Source of the DNA: Acaryochloris marina MBIC11017
Lineage (GTDB): Bacteria > Cyanobacteriota > Cyanobacteriia > Thermosynechococcales > Thermosynechococcaceae
Direction: 5' to 3'
DNA: 32,000 nt
Assembly: GCF_000018105.1 (NCBI RefSeq)
Contig: NC_009925.1
Location: forward strand, 4,620,001-4,652,000
A program made the translations under genes and the position numbers. The stretch's first letter is position 1. Each line of letters starts with the position of its first letter. Under the pieces are notes generated by a model that was not told the origin of the DNA, did not search any database, and saw nothing but the letters and a program-made list of their open reading frames with translations. Positions 4,348 through 19,726 of this stretch are shown here, one piece after another.

Positions 4348-6897
4348 TTAGCGGTTGACCAGTTCACGGAACCATTCATCCTCACGGAAATCAACGAATT
4401 GAGGATCACTACGGGCTTGTTCTCGGAAGCTGGGATTCAGTTTAATAGCCCGCTCGAGATTTTCTAAGCTTAAGGCTGTCTCCCCTTGGAGGACATAGCA
4501 GACTGCCTTGCCATAGTAGGCATTGGGGTAATCTGCATTTATTTCTAAGGCTTTATTCAAGCTGATCAGGGCTTCGCGATCCCGTTCTAGCTTGATCAGA
4601 GCATAGCCTCGATGACTCCAGGCTTTGTAGGCCTCGGGCTTATGAGTCACGGTATGTTCAAAGGACTCAAACGCATCTTCGTGGCGTTCGAGGACTTGTA
4701 AGGCTAACCCCCGGTTTAGCCAGGCTGCAGCATCCTCAGCCTCATGTTGAACCACATGATCAAATGAGGCAAAGGCGTCTTCATGGCGTTGGAGGGTGCC
4801 CATCACGAATCCACGATTCATCCAGGCATTGCGATGGTTCGGTTCAATCTCAATCACACGGTCATAGGCAGCAAGGGCTTCATCCCAGCGCTGAAGGCGC
4901 TCCAGCAGAGTGCCACAGTCCATCCAGTTTTGTGTCTCTTCTGGCTGCAGTTTTGTTGCTTCTTTGAAAGCCCCGAGCGCACCTTCATATCGCTGTAAAT
5001 CTTTCAGAACTTGGCCTCGGCGCTGCCACAGCTGGGGGTCTTCAGGGGTTAGCTCAATCGCCTTATCTAGGGAGCCAACAGCCTCTTCAAACAGCTTTAG
5101 CCCTCTCTGTGCTTCGGCCCGCTGACACCATAGTTGAGGGTCATCGGCTTTTAACTCCAGGGCTTGATTATAGGCAGAGAGGGCCTGACGGAAATTGCTG
5201 TCTGCGAGGTGCTCATCTCCTTGACGGATATAGTCCGCAACATCCAGGAACAAATCAGGATGATTAGCCTGTAATCGCTCTAAAGGTCCCAATGCCGTCT
5301 GCAATTTCTGATCGATTTCTGCTACGGCATCTCCGGCGATCTGGGCTGGGGATAGGGCTGCGAGCTGTTGGAGAATCTGATCTTTGCGAGCTTGGGCATT
5401 TGTTGTAATGGCCGCCAGATCTTGTTCTGTTTTCGCTTCTATGGCCTGTAGGGACTGCTGGGTTTGATCTTGGGACCCTTGTAAATTCGTTTTTAGATCC
5501 GCTAACTGATTGGACACCTGTAAGGTCAGGGCTTCGAGATCTTGGACTGCTTGTTCTTGGGTGGTTTGAACCTCTGTCTTTAGATCTGCCAGCAGAGTCG
5601 AGGCATTGTCAGTCAGAGCCTGAACATCGGCTAGGGCATTGGTCTTTTCAGTCTCCAACTGAGTTCTGTAGTTGAACAGCTGAGTCGAGAATTCAGACTC
5701 TTGTACCTGAAGCCGTTGCAAGGTCTCACTGGCCTGGGTTTGAAAGGTCTCTTGGGCTTCAGTGAGCTGACGCGTAATCTCAGTGCCGACCTGTTTGAGG
5801 CGTACCAGGAAGGACTCTTTCTTTTCGTTCGCCTTCACCTGCAGCTGGCCTTCAATCTCCTCTAACTGGGGGGTGAAATCACTTTCTAGCTGTTTGAGGT
5901 TTTGTAAAATCAGTTCCCACTGTTTACGAGCTTCTTGCTGGAGGTCAGACAGTTGGGTGACATATTCGGCTTTAGAAGTGGCAAGATAGCCAATTAAGGT
6001 TTCTTTCTCCGTTTGGGCAACGGCTTGTAGAGCCGACATTTGCGGCCCAAAATCATTGCTCATCTTTTCAACCCGCGTCAGGATCTTGTCTCGTTCCTGC
6101 TCGCTTTTATCCAGAAGTTGGGACAATTGGGTTTTGAAATCCGTCTCAGACTGCTTCAGGCGGTTTAGAAATTCTGTTTTTTGCGATTGAGCATCCACCT
6201 CAACTGTAAACAGCTGGGGTTCAATCTCTTCGCCGAGGCGTTTGAGATGGGCCAGAATCGTTTCTTGTTCGGTTCTCAGTTCCGTATCTAAAGTGGCAAA
6301 TTTAGTGGTTGAATCAGATTCAAAAGTTGCGATCGCAGCTTCCGTATCCGTCAAGGACCCTTCGATTTTATTGAGGATCTGCTGTTGCTTGGTGGAAAAT
6401 TCCGCCAGCATATCTGACAACCGCTGGCGCTTACTGGTTAAGTCTTGATGAAACTGCTCCGACTCTTGATGTAAATCGGCATCCAGATCTTCTGCCTTTT
6501 GCAGAATCACTTCTACGGCATCCGCCGCATCCGCCAGATGTCCTTTTAAATCTCGCATCTCCCGCAGGTGCTTTTGCACCACCTCCGCGACTTCATGAAC
6601 GACGGCGCGGCGAAGCAAAATCAAGCTGGCAATGGCCGTGGCTAGGATCAATCCCAGCACCACCAAAAACCAGTTAAATAAGGTGGTGGTTTGATTGACG
6701 GCTTGAGTCGCCTCCGCCTGGGCTTGTTTTTGGCCTTCCCGTTCTTTACGCAGCTCTTGCAGGAGCCGCTCAATCTCTTGCGGATCTGTACTAGGGGCAG
6801 TGGGTGATGAAGAAGTCTGGGCCAGGGCAGGACTCAAGAGCAACGTCGAGAGAACAACGCTAAACCAAATCGATGTGCTGAGAGTTTTGGATTTCAT
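4348..6897 (-). CDS. Membrane-anchored coiled-coil protein with 29-residue repeats and a C-terminal TPR array, 849 aa
   Basis: ATG with GAGGAAG upstream. Signal-peptide-like N-terminus ending ALAQ. TM helix at about aa 72-95, followed by RR. A long Q/E/L/T-rich helical region follows. About 8 TPR units occupy the last ~300 aa (e.g. AWMNRGFVMGTLQRHEDAFASFDHVVQHEAEDA). Confidence 0.8.
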   Translation of the reverse strand: MKSKTLSTSIWFSVVLSTLLLSPALAQTSSSPTAPSTDPQEIERLLQELRKEREGQKQAQAEATQAVNQTTTLFNWFLVVLGLILATAIASLILLRRAVVHEVAEVVQKHLREMRDLKGHLADAADAVEVILQKAEDLDADLHQESEQFHQDLTSKRQRLSDMLAEFSTKQQQILNKIEGSLTDTEAAIATFESDSTTKFATLDTELRTEQETILAHLKRLGEEIEPQLFTVEVDAQSQKTEFLNRLKQSETDFKTQLSQLLDKSEQERDKILTRVEKMSNDFGPQMSALQAVAQTEKETLIGYLATSKAEYVTQLSDLQQEARKQWELILQNLKQLESDFTPQLEEIEGQLQVKANEKKESFLVRLKQVGTEITRQLTEAQETFQTQASETLQRLQVQESEFSTQLFNYRTQLETEKTNALADVQALTDNASTLLADLKTEVQTTQEQAVQDLEALTLQVSNQLADLKTNLQGSQDQTQQSLQAIEAKTEQDLAAITTNAQARKDQILQQLAALSPAQIAGDAVAEIDQKLQTALGPLERLQANHPDLFLDVADYIRQGDEHLADSNFRQALSAYNQALELKADDPQLWCQRAEAQRGLKLFEEAVGSLDKAIELTPEDPQLWQRRGQVLKDLQRYEGALGAFKEATKLQPEETQNWMDCGTLLERLQRWDEALAAYDRVIEIEPNHRNAWMNRGFVMGTLQRHEDAFASFDHVVQHEAEDAAAWLNRGLALQVLERHEDAFESFEHTVTHKPEAYKAWSHRGYALIKLERDREALISLNKALEINADYPNAYYGKAVCYVLQGETALSLENLERAIKLNPSFREQARSDPQFVDFREDEWFRELVNR
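5368..6339 (-). repeat. Eleven degenerate ~29-residue (87-nt) tandem repeat units inside the coiled-coil gene
   Basis: Unit starts are at residues 187, 216, 245, 274, 303, 332, 365, 394, 423, 452 and 484. Recurring core is xRLKQxExxFxxQL...(I/L)L, e.g. NRLKQSETDFKTQL, QNLKQLESDFTPQL, QRLQVQESEFSTQL. Confidence 0.7.
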
Positions 6898-7257
6898 CAG
6901 ATCTTCCTCACCTGGGTGGGGTTTGCGATCACCTTCATATATAAGGTAATCAAAATTGAGACGGGTGCTTGCTGTGTACCTAACATAGTAAGGGCCTAAG
7001 GAGCAAGTTCCTCTGCCCCTTCGATTCCCGTAAGCGCATGAATATCTTGAGAGTTAGCGGTGCATCATGGATCATGGGAGTGAACTCAATCTAGTCTTGG
7101 CAACCTGTCATTTTATTCTTTAACTCGGATAAAATTTGCCATAAAATAACACAGTGGCTAGACTTGGGCTTTACCGTTCATATCAGACTCAACGTCAACC
7201 TCAACTAGACTTCGAGTGTATCGTCTTTCTCAATAGCAGCCCGCACTGCTCAATTTA

Positions 7258-13451: not shown

Positions 13452-14633
13452 ATGCAGTATCGTCGATTTGGCAGGACAGAACTGCAAATACCTGTCTTTT
13501 CCTGTGGCGGAATGCGATATCAGCATTCTTGGAAGGATGAACCTGGCTGGAAAGTTCCCAAAGCAAGCCAAGACAACCTGGACGCCACGATTCGTCGATC
13601 GATTGAGCTAGGGATTAACCATATTGAAACAGCCAGAGGTTATGGCACTTCAGAACTGCAGCTGGGAAGAATCCTGCCTACTTTTCCTCGCCATCAGTTA
13701 ATCATTCAAACCAAGGTCGCTCCCAAAGAAAATGCCAAGGAATTTCGCAAGACGTTTGAGCAATCGTTGCGCAATCTAAACCTCGATTATGTCGACTTAC
13801 TGGGGATTCATGGCATTAATACCCCCGAACTACTGGAATTTACCCTTCGCCCGGGTGGATGTCTCGATATAGCTCGCCAACTTCAGGAACAAGGCAAAGT
13901 CAAGTTTGTGGGTTTCTCTACCCACGGTCCAACTGATTTGATTGTGGAAACCATTCAGACGGATCAGTTCGATTACGTCAATTTGCATTGGTATTACATC
14001 AACCAGTTCAATTGGCCCGCTATTGAAGCCGCAACCCACCATGATGTCGGGGTCTTTATTATCAGTCCGTCGGATAAGGGGGGCATGTTGTATAAACCTT
14101 CACCAAAGTTAGTGGAGCTATGCCAACCCCTCAGCCCCATGGTTTTTAACGATTTATTCTGCCTAAGTCACCCTCTAGTCCATACCCTCAGTTTGGGGGC
14201 CGCTCGACCCAGTGATTTTGATGAGCACCTGAAAACATTAGAGTTACTTGATCAAGCAGAGACTTTACTACCGTCGATTTTAGAGCGACTGCAAGCAGCA
14301 GCGATCGCAACCTTAGGCGAAGATTGGGTCAACACTTGGCATCAAGGCTTGCCAACCCATGAGCAAACTCCCGGCAATATCAATATCCCTATCATTCTGT
14401 GGTTACGCAATTTAGCCCTAGCCTATGACATGCAGGAATATGCCAAGATGCGCTACAACCTGCTAGGACAAGCCAGTCACTGGTTCCCCGGCCAAAAAGC
14501 CACCCATCTGTCTGATTTTGATTTGAGTGAGTGCTTACAGACTAGCCCTCATGCTGACAAGATACCTGCCCTCCTGTCACAAACACACTCACAGTTAGGT
14601 GGGCAGTCTATACAAAGATTATCTCAAAGCTAA
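13452..14633 (+). CDS. Aldo/keto reductase family oxidoreductase, 393 aa
   Basis: The ATG at 13452 is preceded by GGAGG. MQYRRFGRTELQIPVFSCGGMRY, INHIETARGYGTSE, YVDLLGIHGIN, KFVGFSTHG, FIISPSDKGG. The upstream extension in the track (from 13341) overlaps the previous gene and is rejected. Confidence 0.85.
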   Translation: MQYRRFGRTELQIPVFSCGGMRYQHSWKDEPGWKVPKASQDNLDATIRRSIELGINHIETARGYGTSELQLGRILPTFPRHQLIIQTKVAPKENAKEFRKTFEQSLRNLNLDYVDLLGIHGINTPELLEFTLRPGGCLDIARQLQEQGKVKFVGFSTHGPTDLIVETIQTDQFDYVNLHWYYINQFNWPAIEAATHHDVGVFIISPSDKGGMLYKPSPKLVELCQPLSPMVFNDLFCLSHPLVHTLSLGAARPSDFDEHLKTLELLDQAETLLPSILERLQAAAIATLGEDWVNTWHQGLPTHEQTPGNINIPIILWLRNLALAYDMQEYAKMRYNLLGQASHWFPGQKATHLSDFDLSECLQTSPHADKIPALLSQTHSQLGGQSIQRLSQS

Positions 14634-15381
14634 TTGAATGATGGTTTTCAGCTTCTTGTGACACAAGGGGAATGGCTTATTTCAAACCATTGCTTCTGCC
14701 TAAAGGTAGTAAAACGATGACGCCTGTCTTGCGCTAGTCACCCTTCTTGGTCCAATAGAGTGAAAGATAGAACGTTGAGAGGAAGAAGTAAATTTTTAAT
14801 CAAAATTGTTGTAAACTTAAACTTTCTTTGTAAAGAAGTTTTGTTTTTGTCTGCTAGAACATCAAAAAAATGACTTCTAATCATCTCATACTCGTTACTT
14901 AAAAATGAAAACCCTTAACTTTTTCTCTAGGTGAGTGAATAATTTGTGAAAAACCACTAGGGGTAAAAAAATCCAGACTACAGTTTCCTTGTGAATTAAA
15001 TTATTTATTGTTCAGAGCAAATCAGATGTTTGAAGTTGTACTTCATTAGATGTATGACTCAGCTGTTCTGTTCCACGGGATAATTTGAAACGCAAAAGAC
15101 GAACGACATGTTGTGTTGTAACGTTAGTTATTAAATTCAAGCTGCCGAATCTAAGTGGTTTAGGCAAGTTAATCTAACAGCAAAAAACGTAAGAAAAGCA
15201 CCGACAGGGGGATGTTCTTAGTGAACAGTTGGTGCTTTAAGGCATTGGATAAATTTCAGTGCAGTTTTTGTTGATTTTAATGCTAACTCTATTGCAAAAT
15301 CTGTTTGTTTGGACTTATCTCTTGGGCGAGCTTTCATCACCAAAGCCCATTGCTACTAAACACTTTCAGCGGTAACTACTC

Positions 15382-15777
15382 ATGAAATTCCAAAAAATCG
15401 CACCACTTGCGGTCCTAATCTCCCTTGGCGCTGCTGCATTACCTGCGGCAGCAGGTGAGTCCTATGTTGAAAATAGCTATAGACTCAAAAGTACTTTTAA
15501 CGGCCATTCCACAACGAATGTGAATGTCCATGAAACTTATAACGCCAATACTTGGGCTGATTCTTCCGCTGTTAAGACTGAGTGGGGATCCACAACTGTC
15601 ACTGAAGCCAAGGATGGGCGCACGTTCCACGAAACAGAATCCTTTGATATTGTCACAGAAAGTTCTGCCCGAGAAGATGGCCGGTTGTCCAGAACAGTTG
15701 ATGTGAGTACTACAGAAAGCTATGATTTTTCTGGCTTTGATAAGGATCACAGAGTCACCAGTGGTTTCTCGTTCTAA
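15382..15777 (+). CDS. Secreted protein A1 of a duplicated two-gene cassette, 131 aa, unknown family
   Basis: ATG start. Sec-type signal peptide MKFQKIAPLAVLISLGAAALPAAAG. The T/S/N/E-rich mature part has recurring (H/T)E(T/S)-aromatic motifs (VHETY, FHETESF, TTESYDF). The C-terminus is ESYDF...TSGFSF, ending in Phe. Confidence 0.65.
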   Translation: MKFQKIAPLAVLISLGAAALPAAAGESYVENSYRLKSTFNGHSTTNVNVHETYNANTWADSSAVKTEWGSTTVTEAKDGRTFHETESFDIVTESSAREDGRLSRTVDVSTTESYDFSGFDKDHRVTSGFSF

Positions 15778-15797
15778 CTGAATTTAGTTAGTTCCTT

Positions 15798-15828
15798 GGG
15801 GCAACACATCGTTGCCCCTCTGTTATTC
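15798..15828 (+). terminator. Intercistronic stem-loop (possible partial terminator/processing site) between A1 and B1
   Basis: Perfect 8-bp stem: GGGGCAAC (15798-15805) pairs with GTTGCCCC (15811-15818). The loop is ACATC, followed by TCTGTTATTC. AGGAG for B1 follows. Confidence 0.4.
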
Positions 15829-15842
15829 AGGAGAAAACACTC

Positions 15843-16568
15843 ATGCACACTCGTCTAATACTTTGTGCATCAGTTGTGAGTTTGTGCGCAATTTCTTCCC
15901 AGTCTGCGCTTGCCCAAACCACCACAAACAATATCGATGCACCTAATAATGCAACTTCAACAGCTAATCCGGCGGTAGATTTGAACCAGCAAGGTTCATT
16001 AGTCAATACTCAAGTCAATACCCATCCATTAGGACGCAGCATTGTCGGTCGAGGGGTCGCAGATTGCACGAGTAATGGCATTGCTGTTTCTGCTTTTGGA
16101 AACGGGATTGGGCCTTTTGACACAGGTACGCTGGGCGGTTCGTTTACCTATACCCATTCTTTTGGGATGGCAACCTGTAACGAATATGCTCAAACTCAAC
16201 TTTCCAAATCAAAACTGGAAAACTGCTTGTTGCTCATTAGCAACTATTCCAAGATGGTCAAAGCTGGCGTCAAAGTCAGTTACCAAGCATTAAAAGCTAT
16301 TGGTGGTGTTGATTGTCCACCTGTAGTTGTTCAAAGTGCAGTGGCCCCAGCAAATGGTCCCCTAGGTCGTAATGCTGTTCCTCCGCATCAAAACCAATCC
16401 CAACCTGTTGTGAGTCAACAGAACCAGTTACAGCGCCAGCAGCAACAGATTACGCCGAATCGCCATCAGGTTCAGCAGCGGCAAAATATACCTCAACATC
16501 AACAAAAACCTCATCACTCAATTCCATCAACTCCAGTGGCTTCTTCGCAACCAGCACCTGCATATTAA
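15843..16568 (+). CDS. Secreted 4-Cys protein B1 of the cassette, with a Q/P-rich C-terminal tail, 241 aa, unknown family
   Basis: ATG with AGGAG upstream. Signal peptide ends SALA-QTT. The conserved ~98-aa core has four Cys (DCT, TCN, NCL, DCP) and is shared with B2. The tail is QNQSQPVVSQQNQLQRQQQQITPNRHQVQQRQNIPQHQQKPHH. Confidence 0.7.
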   Translation: MHTRLILCASVVSLCAISSQSALAQTTTNNIDAPNNATSTANPAVDLNQQGSLVNTQVNTHPLGRSIVGRGVADCTSNGIAVSAFGNGIGPFDTGTLGGSFTYTHSFGMATCNEYAQTQLSKSKLENCLLLISNYSKMVKAGVKVSYQALKAIGGVDCPPVVVQSAVAPANGPLGRNAVPPHQNQSQPVVSQQNQLQRQQQQITPNRHQVQQRQNIPQHQQKPHHSIPSTPVASSQPAPAY

Positions 16569-16704
16569 AGATAGCAGCGGTGATTATTTTGCAATTGTCA
16601 ATACTCTCATTGATGATGTAGCAAGCTAGCGATTGTTGCTGAATTTTGTATGTAAAAAATGTGAGCCCATTGACTGTTTGGCGTCAAGTCACAAAAGCAA
16701 TATG

Positions 16705-16730
16705 AACAACAAATTTTATGTTTTGTTGTT
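16705..16730 (+). other. AT-rich perfect 9-bp hairpin in the spacer upstream of A2
   Basis: AACAACAAA (16705-16713) pairs with TTTGTTGTT (16722-16730), with an 8-nt loop. Confidence 0.4.
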
Positions 16731-16821
16731 ATGGAGTTTGAGCTGATGTTTAAGAACTATCTAAGCAATTATCTGTGTGACTTAGAGAGATTTTGTTGGA
16801 CGAATTGATAATTTTGAAATC

Positions 16822-17211
16822 GTGAAGTACTTATTGACCACTGGATTTCTGGTTTTCGCTGGAGTTGTGGCTAAGCCAGCTGTGGCCCAGAATGCTACAG
16901 CAACCACTGTGACAACGTTTGTGGTGTCACCCACTGGACATACCGTTATTGAACGCAATATTCATGACTCCGTCCAATCTCATCAAAATTCTGTCTCTCT
17001 AACCACGGATAGCCAGAGCGGTTCTTCCCAAACCTCGAATACGGAAGGGGGGAGGACGACACAAACGACTTATAACTATGGCAGTACTGCAACGAGTATT
17101 GCTGTAGAGAATATTGACATAACGCGAGAAGTAGAAGTTGAATTTCGTGAAGAATATGACTTTAACGAAGTCTTGATTATCAATAATTCCACGACAGGCT
17201 ACAGCTTTTAA
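16822..17211 (+). CDS. Secreted protein A2 (paralogue-like partner of A1), 129 aa, GTG start
   Basis: Signal peptide KYLLTTGFLVFAGVVAKPAVA-QN. T/S/N/Q-rich mature part. The C-terminus EEYDF...TTGYSF matches ESYDF...TSGFSF of A1. Confidence 0.6.
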   Translation: MKYLLTTGFLVFAGVVAKPAVAQNATATTVTTFVVSPTGHTVIERNIHDSVQSHQNSVSLTTDSQSGSSQTSNTEGGRTTQTTYNYGSTATSIAVENIDITREVEVEFREEYDFNEVLIINNSTTGYSF

Positions 17212-17290
17212 CCTTATTTTTTTCAAATCAGTGCAAGTTCCAGCATCACTCTTAAGACGAATAGCCTCTGGTCCGAGGCAGGGAATAGTG

Positions 17291-17791
17291 ATGCTTCTGA
17301 TCGCTGCACAGATGGTGGTCATCCCGCTGCAAAGCATCGCGCAAACAACAAATTCGATTGATGCTGGCAATACAGCTGAGACAGATACTAGTCCAGAGCT
17401 AGAGCTGATTCAAGGGGGTGTCTTAACCAATTCACGACCGAGGCAGCGCCCCCTCGGTAAAGCAATTGTTGGCAAAAGTCTAAGTGACTGTACGACGAGT
17501 GGTTTAGCAGTGTCAGTCTTTGGAACTGGGATTGGCCCTTTTGATGATGGCTCAATCGGCGGCTCTTTTACTTATACTCAATCAGCAGGCATGGAAGCTT
17601 GTAAACGGCATGCACGTTCCCAGTTAACCCGCATCAAACTAGAAACATGTTTGCTGTTGATTAGTAACTATTCAAAAATGAAGAAGGCAGGCATTAAGGT
17701 GAGTTACCAAGCCTTACAAAAAGCGTCGGGCGTGGAGTGTCCTAACTTGACTCTAGAGCAGATTGCACCAGGTGCAGTCATTAACAATTAG
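17291..17791 (+). CDS. Secreted 4-Cys protein B2 (paralogue of B1, no Q-rich tail), about 166 aa
   Basis: The ATG at 17291 gives the signal peptide MLLIAAQMVVIPLQSIA-QTTNSIDAGN, parallel to B1 ALA-QTTTNNIDAPN. The track ORF starts at a GTG at 17231. Hand alignment of the 98-aa core gives 64/98 identical residues, with all four Cys conserved. Confidence 0.7.
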   Translation: MLLIAAQMVVIPLQSIAQTTNSIDAGNTAETDTSPELELIQGGVLTNSRPRQRPLGKAIVGKSLSDCTTSGLAVSVFGTGIGPFDDGSIGGSFTYTQSAGMEACKRHARSQLTRIKLETCLLLISNYSKMKKAGIKVSYQALQKASGVECPNLTLEQIAPGAVINN

Positions 17792-17811
17792 CAGAATCCA
17801 CGCCTTTCAGC

Positions 17812-18234
17812 TTATTCAGCAGAGACTTTAACCGATAGGATTTTGTCCCCCTGACGAATGGCATTCACTACATCCATATCTTGGGTTTGCCCGAAAGTCG
17901 TATGCACGCCATCCAAATGAGGTTGAGGGGCATGGCAAATAAAGAATTGGCTGCCGCCTGTATCCCGACCTGCATGGGCCATGGATAGAGTTCCAGCTTG
18001 GTGTTTGTTGTTATTAATTTCGCACTTAATGGTGTAGCCAGGGCCACCCGTTCCTGTTCCTTTTGGGCAACCCCCTTGGATCATAAAATTAGGAATGACA
18101 CGATGAAAAGATAAGCCGTCATAAAACCCTTTATTGGCTAAGTCAACGAAATTTTTGACGGTGTTAGGGGCGTCCTGATCAAATAAATCAAGATTAATCG
18201 TACCTTTGTCTGTTTCCATTATGGCTTTGGTCAT
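17812..18234 (-). CDS. Cyclophilin-type peptidyl-prolyl cis-trans isomerase, 140 aa
   Basis: [57 protein letters not shown]. The ATG at 18234 is preferred over the upstream non-conserved extension. Confidence 0.9.
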
Positions 18235-18335
18235 GGTAATCCTAACTTTTTGATATTGTCTGCAACTTTGGCATCCTATCTTGGGACCAAGGGGATTGCA
18301 ATTCAATTTTTACGTTAATCCCTTTTTCATTACTC

Positions 18336-19073
18336 ATGCACACCCATCCACTCTGGCGGACAAAACTTCGACAGTTTCGGGGCTTCCTCAAACGACGGCG
18401 TCGCTGCTTGGGTATTGTTCTATTGCTGAATGGTGGCTTGTGGGGAATACCTGCCCTCTATATGGTGATTCGAACACCACCCACACCAAAGGTCAGTCTA
18501 CCGAACATAAATCAATTGCGACAGTCAAAATACGACCTTTACGTCGTCAATTGGGGGTTTCATACTGCTATTCTCATTGAGCAACCTCAGGGATGGAAGC
18601 TCGGCCCTCCCAACGCTCCGACTTCCCGTTATGTTGAGTATGGTTGGGGAGATAAGCAGTTTTTTATGATGTCTGATACCTCGCTCTTGACGACGCTTGC
18701 TGCTGGTATTTTTCCAACGGATTCTGTCATGTATCTGAGAGGTCGAGATACGCTACTTGAGGCCCAAAACTATGCACGGCAACTGTATTACCGACAAATC
18801 TCTGCCCAACAACTTTATGATTTGATTACGACGCTAGAGCAAAGCTTCCGACGTCAAGCGGGGGAACGGAGTATGCCCTATCCGCCAGTTTCTAATTTTA
18901 AGGGGCAGTTTTATCCAGGTCGTGAGTATTATGTGATTTGGTCTGATTGTAATGCCTGGACCATTCGCCATCTTCAAGAGATTGAGGTTGCCCACTCCTT
19001 GGTACCCGTGATCTTTGCAGAGCAAGTAGGCCCGAGTTTACAAGGCTTTCAACTGATTCGAGGGACGCATTAA
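18336..19073 (+). CDS. Conserved hypothetical protein, probably TIGR02117/DUF2459 family, 245 aa
   Basis: N-terminal TM segment. YVVNWGFHTAILIE and YVEYGWGDKQFFM resemble the DUF2459 signature as I recall it. Confidence 0.5.
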   Translation: MHTHPLWRTKLRQFRGFLKRRRRCLGIVLLLNGGLWGIPALYMVIRTPPTPKVSLPNINQLRQSKYDLYVVNWGFHTAILIEQPQGWKLGPPNAPTSRYVEYGWGDKQFFMMSDTSLLTTLAAGIFPTDSVMYLRGRDTLLEAQNYARQLYYRQISAQQLYDLITTLEQSFRRQAGERSMPYPPVSNFKGQFYPGREYYVIWSDCNAWTIRHLQEIEVAHSLVPVIFAEQVGPSLQGFQLIRGTH

Positions 19074-19180
19074 TTCAGCCCCTGTCCCTACCCCCCAATT
19101 ATATAAGGAGCTGCCCTTTGAAATTGTTCAGGCAGGACACCCATGGCCCACAATAATATTCAAAATTACATTCTTAAAAT

Positions 19181-19726
19181 ATGGATCAACAGTTAAAAGC
19201 TGTTAGTAAGTTTCTCAGCTATATTCTTCGACATCGACCTGAGGCGATTAGTTTAGAACTGAATGCAGGTGGCTGGGCAGCTATTTCTGAATTAATTCAA
19301 TGCGCTAGCAAGCATGACCATTTCTTATCTGAAGAAATTATCAAAGAAGTAGTTGTTTCTAATGACAAGAAGCGGTTTAAATTAAGTGAAGATGGCCAAT
19401 ATATTCGAGCTAACCAAGGACATTCCATTCGGGTTGACTTGGATTTATTGCCTTTGACACCTCCTGATGTTTTATTCCATGGAACAGCCACACGGTTTTT
19501 AGCGTCTATCATGGCGAAGGGCCTACTCCCTTCAGGACGTCAACATGTCCATCTTTCAGCGTCATACGAAACTGCGATCGCAGTGGGCAGACGGCATGGC
19601 AAACCCACGGTATTGGAAATTAATGCCCAAAAAATGCAAGGTGACGGCTATCTGTTTTATCGTTCTGAAAATGGTGTTTGGCTCACCGATCATGTGCCTG
19701 CTCAGTATTTCGTAGAAGTAGAATAA
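19181..19726 (+). CDS. kptA: RNA 2'-phosphotransferase, Tpt1/KptA family, 181 aa
   Basis: SKFLSYILRHRPE, GGWAAISELI, RF.L..DGQYIRANQGHS, LFHGT, GRQHVHLS, HGKP.VLEI. These cover the Arg-His-Arg-Arg catalytic-tetrad context of Tpt1 enzymes. Confidence 0.85.
   Translation: MDQQLKAVSKFLSYILRHRPEAISLELNAGGWAAISELIQCASKHDHFLSEEIIKEVVVSNDKKRFKLSEDGQYIRANQGHSIRVDLDLLPLTPPDVLFHGTATRFLASIMAKGLLPSGRQHVHLSASYETAIAVGRRHGKPTVLEINAQKMQGDGYLFYRSENGVWLTDHVPAQYFVEVE

Follow-up and report, generated by a model that had tools for sequence, protein, structure and literature searches.

A candidate exported β-hairpin module of Acaryochloris marina with a four-cysteine partner related to a cyanophage protein superfamily

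Long β-hairpins rich in serine and threonine are known from the β-pore toxins (aerolysin/lysenin, anthrax protective antigen (PA), CDTb/iota Ib), in which the hairpins exist only in a homo-oligomeric β-barrel. Many copies of a long hairpin also form the large solvent-exposed or outer-membrane-associated β-barrel rings and tubes of FlgH and of phi29-like lower collars, and a single ββ-hairpin unit has been proposed as the ancestor of β-barrel proteins. Among the spanins (lambda Rz/Rz1, T4 PseT.3/PseT.2, T1 gp11), adjacent genes specify pairs of small envelope proteins that are exported and have cysteines in the periplasm, and in curli the gene for an abundant β-rich subunit (CsgA) is followed by that of a partner (CsgB). 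Here we describe the genes AM1_4602 to AM1_4605 of Acaryochloris marina MBIC11017, annotated as ‘hypothetical’ in all four cases, which encode two kinds of small protein, A and B, in the order A1-B1-A2-B2. All positions given are those of the 32,000-nucleotide (nt) stretch that was analysed (the window), in which the four genes lie on the + strand (Table 1). Both families are known in databases just as hypothetical proteins or as PHROGs without a function. We tentatively favour the reading that the locus encodes an exported, envelope-acting β-hairpin assembly with a disulfide-bonded partner, a reading in which oligomerisation, stoichiometry, location and function are what we infer.

No described system matches the locus; outer-membrane proteins (OMPs), β-pore toxins, spanins, curli and chaperone-usher pili each fail at least one defining feature. 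The A protein as predicted shares with the β-pore toxins a long S/T-rich hairpin (top Foldseek E values 3e-5 to 1e-3), but consists of the hairpin alone without a cap or receptor-binding domain, has a polar tip that tolerates indels of 1-45 amino acids (aa) in place of a hydrophobic membrane-inserting one, and is made inside the producer's own envelope. FlgH and the phi29-like tubes carry extra domains and belong to large machines; their Foldseek matches are weak (E 1e-2 to 1e-4), and no flagellar or tail genes are found near the cassette. OMPs that depend on the β-barrel assembly machinery (BAM) resemble A in the Sec-type signal peptide and in the C-terminal G-[FY]-x-[FY] of almost all 55 host A-family proteins, yet A has two strands per chain as against at least eight, or four per chain in the known trimeric barrels. 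Unlike spanins, A and B lack a lipobox, an N-terminal transmembrane (TM) anchor and a coiled coil and have cleavable signal peptides, A is all-β, and holin and endolysin genes are absent from the window and from the host loci. Unlike curli and functional amyloids, A contains no repeat solenoid and the flanks hold no export genes of the CsgG/E/F or FapF type, while B, unlike CsgB, is a Cys-containing protein of mixed β/α structure. As to chaperone-usher pili, no gene for a PapD-like chaperone or an usher was present in any locus, and A2 gave a sub-threshold match to DUF2574 (E 0.13).

An original prediction from the bare sequence had proposed four open reading frames (ORFs) in the order A1-B1-A2-B2, encoding exported proteins of unrecognised families, and the ORFs, their order and their strand were all confirmed. 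Each of the four proteins has, by inspection, a signal-peptide-like N-terminus with a positive n-region, a hydrophobic core and an AxA-type cleavage site. Ratios of nonsynonymous to synonymous substitution (dN/dS), calculated by the Nei-Gojobori method with orthologues in three Acaryochloridaceae genomes, were 0.04-0.22 across the four genes where dS was unsaturated (A1 0.15, B1 0.04-0.05, A2 0.07-0.22, B2 0.10). Because all four are under purifying selection, they are taken to be real genes. Scans of the four proteins with Pfam, NCBIfam and PADLOC returned sub-threshold noise alone (Flo11, DUF2574, CarO, MerP), none of them matched PADLOC at E<=0.1, and searches of PDB sequences with A and B profiles gave no match. 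The exported and uncharacterised status of both families was thus borne out. A search of the literature on the AM1_4602-4605 locus tags, the Acaryochloris exoproteome, cyanophage lysis, OMP1 and gp165 turned up neither a functional study nor expression or proteomic data, and the locus tags occurred in none of the searchable papers. Two features escaped the first reading of the sequence, namely the giant-hairpin architecture of A and the link of B to a cyanophage superfamily.

A was predicted to be all-β, as had been expected from its composition. The AlphaFold2 (AF2) model of A1 is one antiparallel β-hairpin with strands at residues 26-77 and 80-130, a tip of K77-D78-G79 and its turn at D78-G79. 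The input alignment held 24 sequences, and the predicted local distance difference test (pLDDT) was ~75 along the strands and 70 overall, the five models spanning 37-70. The predicted template modelling score (pTM) was 0.29, a low value that is expected for an elongated shape. Because this alignment is shallow, independent support for the hairpin was sought in the sequences themselves, using 55 non-redundant A-family members from the loci. All indels longer than one residue (up to ~45) fall at the predicted tip, and single-residue indels in the arms occur in two sequences only. When mutual information with average product correction was averaged along anti-diagonals, i+j=157, which is the AF2 register, ranked first of 177 (z 3.6). 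The top single covarying pair, A55-L102, lies on this diagonal, and the next best long diagonals (159, 155 and 153) have the same parity. Glycine facing an aromatic residue across the hairpin reached 0.44 at register 157 and 0.32 at 155, against 0.04-0.22 at the other registers scanned. The cross-strand partners are G41 (100%) with F/Y116 (95%), G69 with Y/F88 and G118 with F/Y39. A2 is far diverged from A1 (25% identity, pairwise E 1e-7, no internal gaps), as had been noted originally; it keeps the E(S/E)YDF and G(F/Y)SF motifs and retains the G41-F116 and G69-aromatic88 pairs.

The hairpin might instead be an artefact of prediction, A being a compact β-meander or sandwich with turns at NG 40-41, DG 78-79 and DG 99-100, or largely disordered, and the locus encoding ordinary lineage-specific periplasmic proteins. 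The shallow alignment, the pTM and the spread of pLDDT among the models speak for this, as do several NG/DG dipeptides within the ‘strands’ and the tendency of T/S-rich low-complexity sequences to be over-predicted. The candidate turns do not behave alike, however: position 78-79 takes insertions of 1-45 residues, and no indel was found at NG40-41 or DG99-100 in the 55 sequences. The long-range covariation peak falls exactly at i+j=157 and not on local hairpin diagonals, and the invariant G41 meets F/Y116 in register 157 only. Because indels, covariation and Gly-aromatic pairing favour the AF2 register, a compact meander with NG/DG turns is unlikely, and we regard the artefact as a whole as very improbable. 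The hairpin architecture of A is accordingly treated here as predicted, with independent sequence support from these three kinds of evidence.

The two faces of the predicted hairpin differ. One is conserved and carries V/Y/L/F, many G/A/S and fixed charges such as E98, E112 and K65; the opposite face is variable, polar and rich in T/S/N/K/H/D. The tip of A1 is polar (TEAKDGRT). In three loci (L001 7243-7722, L016 5193-5654, L009 5418-5915) a C-x4-6-C pair lies within a long tip insert, suggesting that a disulfide closes a loop at the tip of the hairpin, as would fit an oxidising compartment. A Foldseek search of the PDB with the A model gave 17 matches at E<=1e-3, to lysenin, anthrax PA, CDTb and iota pores and to phi29-like tail tubes, with weaker matches to aerolysin pores and the L-ring protein FlgH. 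A search of a viral library returned podovirus lower-collar proteins and unnamed marine phage proteins. Because the TM-scores of the PDB matches are low (0.16-0.29 for the pore toxins), these are read as similarity of shape and not as homology. In the PDB matches the long hairpin occurs solely as part of an oligomeric β-barrel or tube, and a two-stranded ribbon of the predicted length of A should not be stable alone.

The B proteins combine a conserved N/T/Q-rich segment at the mature N-terminus (…NPxVxLxQQGSLVNTQVNTxPLGR…), a Gly-rich β-like region, a helical region and, in the B1 type, a Gln/Pro-rich tail. B1 and B2 are clearly related (56% identity over 144 aa, E 1e-59), sharing the GIGPFD, GGSFTYT, CLLLISNYSKM and KVSYQAL motifs on which their kinship had first been proposed. 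The proposed four-Cys core also stood: C75, C112, C128 and C158 are invariant in an alignment of 45 homologues, with three of the four located within the helical region or immediately behind it. A lipoprotein nature of B1 was considered and rejected, the LILC motif not being conserved among homologues.

B provides the connection to phages. The distant B relatives from an exhaustive search lie on contigs with phage- or plasmid-type genes, each with an A-like neighbour, and match PHROGs 1755 and 848, neither of which has an assigned function; B1 and B2 of the window themselves fall below detection by PHROG hidden Markov models (HMMs). With tblastn, B-like genes were found in the Synechococcus myovirus S-CAM7 and the Prochlorococcus podovirus P-RSP2, and a search from P-RSP2 brought the number of cyanophage records with a B-like protein to 341, both T7-like and T4-like. 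The protein encoded directly 5' of the B-like gene recurs in 51 cyanopodovirus records, including P-SSP7. With signal peptides removed, hhalign joined host B to an intermediate group that includes S-CAM7 gp027 (99.5%, E 3.6e-22), this group to P-SSP7 gp45/gp165 (98.5%, E 1.9e-15), and host B directly to P-SSP7 gp45/gp165 (88%, E 2.8e-6). The aligned portion takes in the N-x-Q-x-N ... G-x-G-I-x-C segment as well as the helical part that bears Cys residues. These profile comparisons argue strongly for homology of B to the cyanophage gp45/gp165 superfamily (phrog_848/phrog_1755).

The phage genes that stand in the position of A are less readily connected. In P-SSP7 the order is tail fibres, gp42 (one TM segment), gp43 (two TM segments, DUF6450), gp44 (signal peptide, T-rich), gp45 (B-like), gp46 and terS, and the T4-like cyanophages carry a conserved trio of ‘OMP1’ (phrog_564), gp166 and gp165, placed divergently beside hsp20 (L031 3156-4711, L034 660-2343, L036 567-2250). 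The gp44/gp45 pair and the equivalent gp166/gp165 pair (PHROGs 650 and 848/1755) resemble the host locus in a B that is homologous over the mature region and in a small exported T/S-rich protein encoded directly 5' of B. The phage A-position proteins share with host A their position, export signal, composition and architecture, each being built of two arms of ~48-50 residues, almost free of gaps, with a single indel site at the centre. The additional paralogue-like gene (‘OMP1’) of the T4-like cyanophages echoes the multiple A copies of host loci. The name ‘OMP1 protein’ is apparently an untested annotation, phrog_564 having no assigned function. Unlike the host proteins, phage B has a shifted Cys pattern and no Gln/Pro tail, and the upstream phage protein ends in FSQ; host loci, for their part, lack the 2-TM DUF6450 neighbour. 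S-CAM7 gp026 gave a weak match to host A (hhalign E 0.0018 without signal peptide; 29.7 bits with the A HMM when the signal peptide was included). The phage A-position proteins, ‘OMP1’ and S-CAM7 gp026 had been entertained as homologues of host A from HMM and jackhmmer searches, and this was withdrawn when hhalign without signal peptides was not significant. Profile searches of the PDB with the P-SSP7 gp44/gp45 pair gave no match.

The phage proteins also bear on the possibility that A is a true BAM-assembled outer-membrane β-barrel of several chains with two strands each, B then being a periplasmic plug or accessory. It was proposed at the outset that the terminal Phe of A is a β-signal read by the outer-membrane assembly machinery. 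The C-terminal aromatic did prove to be conserved, nearly every one of the 55 host A proteins ending in [FY]-x-[FY]; the signal peptides are of Sec type by inspection, the cross-strand Gly-aromatic pairs of A are of a kind known from OMP barrels, FlgH of the outer-membrane L-ring is among the fold matches, and a paralogous gene bears the name ‘OMP1 protein’ in some cyanophage records. That name is an untested label. A family-wide profile of the two faces revealed no lipid-type hydrophobic belt on either, with no run of ~5 consecutive lipid-facing hydrophobic positions, and conserved or frequent charges occur on both faces over the full length, the terminal third included. Strands of 50 residues are also ~5x a membrane span. 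The positional equivalents in phages end in Gln (FSQ) without a terminal aromatic, which further weakens the β-signal idea. A BAM-assembled barrel is, on balance, distinctly unlikely.

The neighbourhood of the phage pair suggests where the module may act. In P-SSP7 the pair lies 3' of the 2-TM DUF6450 gene and before terS, a position that we take to correspond to that of T7 holin 17.5 and spanins 18.5/18.7. The 2-TM protein encoded directly 5' of the phage pair matches Pfam DUF6450 (E 2e-32; L030 5657-5968 and L029 3343-3582) and has a highly charged C-terminal tail and holin-like topology. Kongari et al. 2018 list P-SSP7, Syn5, P60, S-PM2, P-SSM2/4, S-ShM2 and other cyanophages as ‘spanin-less’, and note that Prochlorococcus or Synechococcus is the host of 20 among the 91 phages in which no spanin could be identified (PMC6139136). 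It is conceivable, though in our judgement unlikely, that the A/B pair is a new envelope-perforating or bridging machine, a long β-barrel tube of single-hairpin protomers with a disulfide-bonded partner, which replaces spanins for outer-membrane disruption in cyanophages, with the genes of Acaryochloris and its relatives as its cellular or domesticated branch. A would in that case be the first natural protein of just one ββ-hairpin to build a barrel.

The broader and tentatively preferred reading, an exported β-hairpin assembly acting on the envelope, would work as follows. After removal of the signal peptide, A would fold as one antiparallel hairpin of ~50 residues per strand and would be the abundant protomer. 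Its copies would be expected to pack laterally, by way of the conserved face and the edges of the strands, and so to form an oligomeric β-barrel, a tube or a rod, ~12-15 nm in length as estimated from the strands, in which A1-type and A'-type paralogues may co-assemble. B would be the scarcer, disulfide-stabilised partner that nucleates, caps or anchors the A assembly, and the Gln/Pro tail of B1 could serve as a spacer or tether. Such a structural pair of an abundant subunit and a disulfide-bonded partner had been suggested from the start and appears plausible, a terminator-like hairpin between A and B being conserved. The module is thought of as acting on the outer membrane, the peptidoglycan or both, as the outermost parts of the cyanobacterial envelope, because B is homologous to a cyanophage protein and because the phage pair stands beside a 2-TM gene at the position of the T7 holin and spanins. 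The phage version would breach or remodel an outer envelope layer, and the Acaryochloris version would be a permanent part of the envelope, maintained by purifying selection.

Several results weigh against this reading. The conserved face of A bears many charges, so simple hydrophobic packing is unlikely, and the AF2 model of B is poor (mean pLDDT 48), being confident for helices 109-154 alone. The 2-TM phage neighbour is DUF6450/phrog_721 and is not annotated as a holin, and no DUF6450-like ORF was found near any host cassette. Host A and the phage A-position proteins, aligned by hhalign without signal peptides, reach only E 0.83 (gp44/gp166) and 0.24 (‘OMP1’). Neither A nor B of the host type was found in viral or plasmid collections, whether IMG/VR was scanned with profiles of the two host families or the B core was compared by tblastn with records of phages and plasmids. 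The function in the host may therefore differ from that in phages. A metagenome scan with the A1-type alignment likewise gave no match.

If the assembly does exist, a protein made of a single 50-rung β-hairpin, its register kept across cyanobacteria, would be an unusual building block and a natural test case for the assembly of β-barrels or tubes from minimal units. The cassette would add a component to the envelope of Acaryochloris, relevant to surface properties, permeability and interactions with phages. B would tie a small cyanobacterial family to a gene pair in 341 records of Synechococcus and Prochlorococcus phages, and the phage pair would be a concrete candidate for passage of the outer membrane by ecologically dominant cyanophages, in which spanins are unidentifiable (PMC6139136). 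Even without a link to lysis, architecture and genomic context are now available for PHROGs 848, 1755, 650 and 564 and for Pfam DUF6450, which had been blank.

The distribution of the module is narrow. Word-indexed searches gave 43 relatives of B, 17 of A1 and 6 of A2, the named hosts being Acaryochloris, Acaryochloridaceae, Thermosynechococcaceae and Altericista, and when the B-core profile was run exhaustively with HMMER against 1.84 billion representatives, just 13 proteins reached E<=1e-3. With each GTDB species represented by one genome, a scan gave 17 loci, and all named records are cyanobacterial. Adjacency of A and B, which the original prediction had proposed to check in other genomes, is strongly conserved. 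In the loci with enough flanking sequence, ORFs mapped by HMM fall into a constant order on a single strand, in which B is preceded by one to three A genes and followed by an A2-like gene; some genomes carry two loci. A second B gene 3' of A2 is found in Acaryochloridaceae loci only. In a neighbour-joining tree B2 is a long branch nested within the Acaryochloridaceae/Thermosynechococcaceae B clade, and only 84 nt of B1 and B2 DNA can still be aligned, at 75% identity. Because an A2-like gene follows B even in single-B loci and B2 is a nested long branch, the split of A1 and A2 is considered old and that of B1 and B2 later. The tandemly duplicated two-gene cassette first proposed thus gives way to an ancestral module that, from gene order and phylogeny, is nA-B-A', with B2 as a later, lineage-specific duplicate in Acaryochloridaceae.

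This distribution is relevant to another explanation, in which A and B are a phage-derived defence of the envelope such as superinfection exclusion, the exported proteins blocking adsorption or genome entry and an arms race driving variation at the tip and the exposed face. The B superfamily is indeed centred on cyanophages and mobile-element-like contigs, its host distribution is narrow and patchy, copy number varies, the tip is hypervariable and one face variable, the flanks are AT-rich, and a STAND NTPase gene adjoins the Altericista locus. PADLOC, however, found no match, and selection on the genes is strongly purifying. A cyclophilin-type peptidyl-prolyl isomerase (PPIase) on the minus strand and a DUF2459 protein lie 3' of B2 at 17812-19073, and the identical pair follows B2 in Acaryochloridaceae SU_2_1 (L003); from this shared synteny the position of the cassette on the chromosome is therefore stable in Acaryochloridaceae, which also sits poorly with a defence gene. 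With the B-like gene present in 341 cyanophage records, T7-like and T4-like, a core role in infection seems a better description than an accessory for exclusion. We regard a defence role as clearly improbable.

Two candidate RNA elements accompany the genes. Most related loci have an equivalent of the A1/B1 stem-loop in the interval that separates B from the A gene nearest to it on the 5' side, and the consensus fold has 9 pairs, of which 3 show compensatory changes, followed by the GGAG Shine-Dalgarno sequence of B. This suggests an attenuator or 3'-stabiliser that would raise A over B. Differential expression by way of an intergenic hairpin resembles that of pilin operons, and a further explanation sees the products as an extracellular or surface fibre, or a functional amyloid, for adhesion or aggregation, with A as major subunit and B as nucleator or anchor (compare CsgA/CsgB and pilus subunits). 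An excess of A, as suggested by the attenuator-like hairpin, would suit a fibre, and so would a T/S/N-rich all-β subunit, a variable tip and face, one to three A copies with second loci in some genomes, and disulfides that fit an extracytoplasmic location. Against it, no secretion channel, usher, chaperone or sortase-like gene lies in or beside any locus, no Pfam match to curli, Fap, TasA or pilin families was obtained, A is not a repeat solenoid, and an adhesion fibre is hard to reconcile with retention by hundreds of lytic cyanophages. A fibre is for these reasons improbable.

The second candidate element is the leader of A1. The 85 nt 5' of A1 are ~96% identical, by manual count, between the window and loci L005 and L006, and in L003, which is more distant, the final 40 nt can still be recognised. 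This leader is regarded as conserved because it keeps ~96% identity while synonymous sites of A1 are near saturation (dS ~1.15). A canonical Shine-Dalgarno sequence is absent before the A1 ATG, and Rfam had no match in the leader or anywhere else in the window; the leader may be a regulatory RNA element. A 38-aa hydrophobic ORF that overlaps it, entertained as a holin, was rejected as coding, with a match in L006 and none in L005. The search for a holin beside the host cassette ended there, as no DUF6450-like ORF occurs in host loci.

Coordinates of the genes and of the non-coding features are collected in Table 1. The AT-rich DNA 5' of each half of the cassette, seen already in the original prediction, was confirmed by a profile of G+C content (GC), with values of 0.37-0.39 at 14501-15500 and 0.39 at 16501-17000, the rest of the window lying mostly at 0.44-0.54. 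Promoter-like matches in the region upstream of the leader were weak and not above those in shuffled sequence, and the spacer between B1 and A2 held a single weak promoter-like match at 16783-16812.

Table 1. Genes and non-coding features of the AM1_4602-AM1_4605 locus, in window positions
Feature	Locus tag	Position	Strand	Basis	Remarks
A1	AM1_4602	15382-15777	+	ORF, 131 aa, mature ~107 residues	exported; predicted single 50-rung β-hairpin
B1	AM1_4603	15843-16568	+	ORF, 241 aa	exported four-Cys protein with Gln/Pro-rich tail
A2	AM1_4604	16822-17211	+	ORF, 129 aa	A'-type paralogue of the hairpin family; A-HMM E 6e-51
B2	AM1_4605	17231-17791	+	ORF, 186 aa from GTG or 166 aa from ATG 17291 (GenBank)	without Gln/Pro tail
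AT-rich non-coding region 5' of A1		14634-15296	.	GC ~0.37-0.39; no + strand ORF >=50 aa	presumed promoter region
Conserved A1 5' leader		15297-15381	+	cross-locus identity	
GC-rich stem-loop and T-rich tract, A1/B1 intergenic		15798-15828	+	scan	intrinsic-terminator/attenuator-like
AT-rich spacer B1/A2		16569-16821	.	GC ~0.39	possible internal promoter

Other genes were seen near relatives of the locus. In the Thermosynechococcaceae loci a third small exported protein, 105 aa long, aromatic-rich and ending in SYDFTIIKSFDY, is encoded 3' of the A2-like gene (L002 9297-9614, also L011 7435-7752 and L012 5761-6078). It is absent from the window and may be a further member of the module. In Altericista sp. 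CCNU0014 a STAND-type NTPase of the NACHT/NB-ARC kind with a helix-turn-helix (HTH) lies directly 3' of A-B-A' on the opposite strand (L001 9289-10782); this defence-like neighbour was found in the Altericista genome alone.

The segment that holds the four genes contains no HIP1 site, as was originally pointed out. The observation is correct but not significant, the site-free gap at 14309-19573 (5.3 kb) comparing with other gaps of ~4 kb, and absence of HIP1 as a sign of foreign origin was rejected since the gap is barely longer than others in the window. The HIP1 octamer GCGATCGC occurs at 15 sites in the window (e.g. 755, 14301 and 19574) as against 0.38 expected from shuffles, an excess that represents the usual cyanobacterial enrichment.

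In S-CAM7 (L028, NC_031927) two pilin-like genes lie ~2 kb 3' of the A/B-like pair, amid small unannotated genes. The first (6257-6559) encodes a type IV pilin-like protein with the GFTLIELMVVVAIVG motif that is annotated as ‘pilin’, and the second (6566-7129) a minor-pilin-like protein with a hydrophobic N-terminus.

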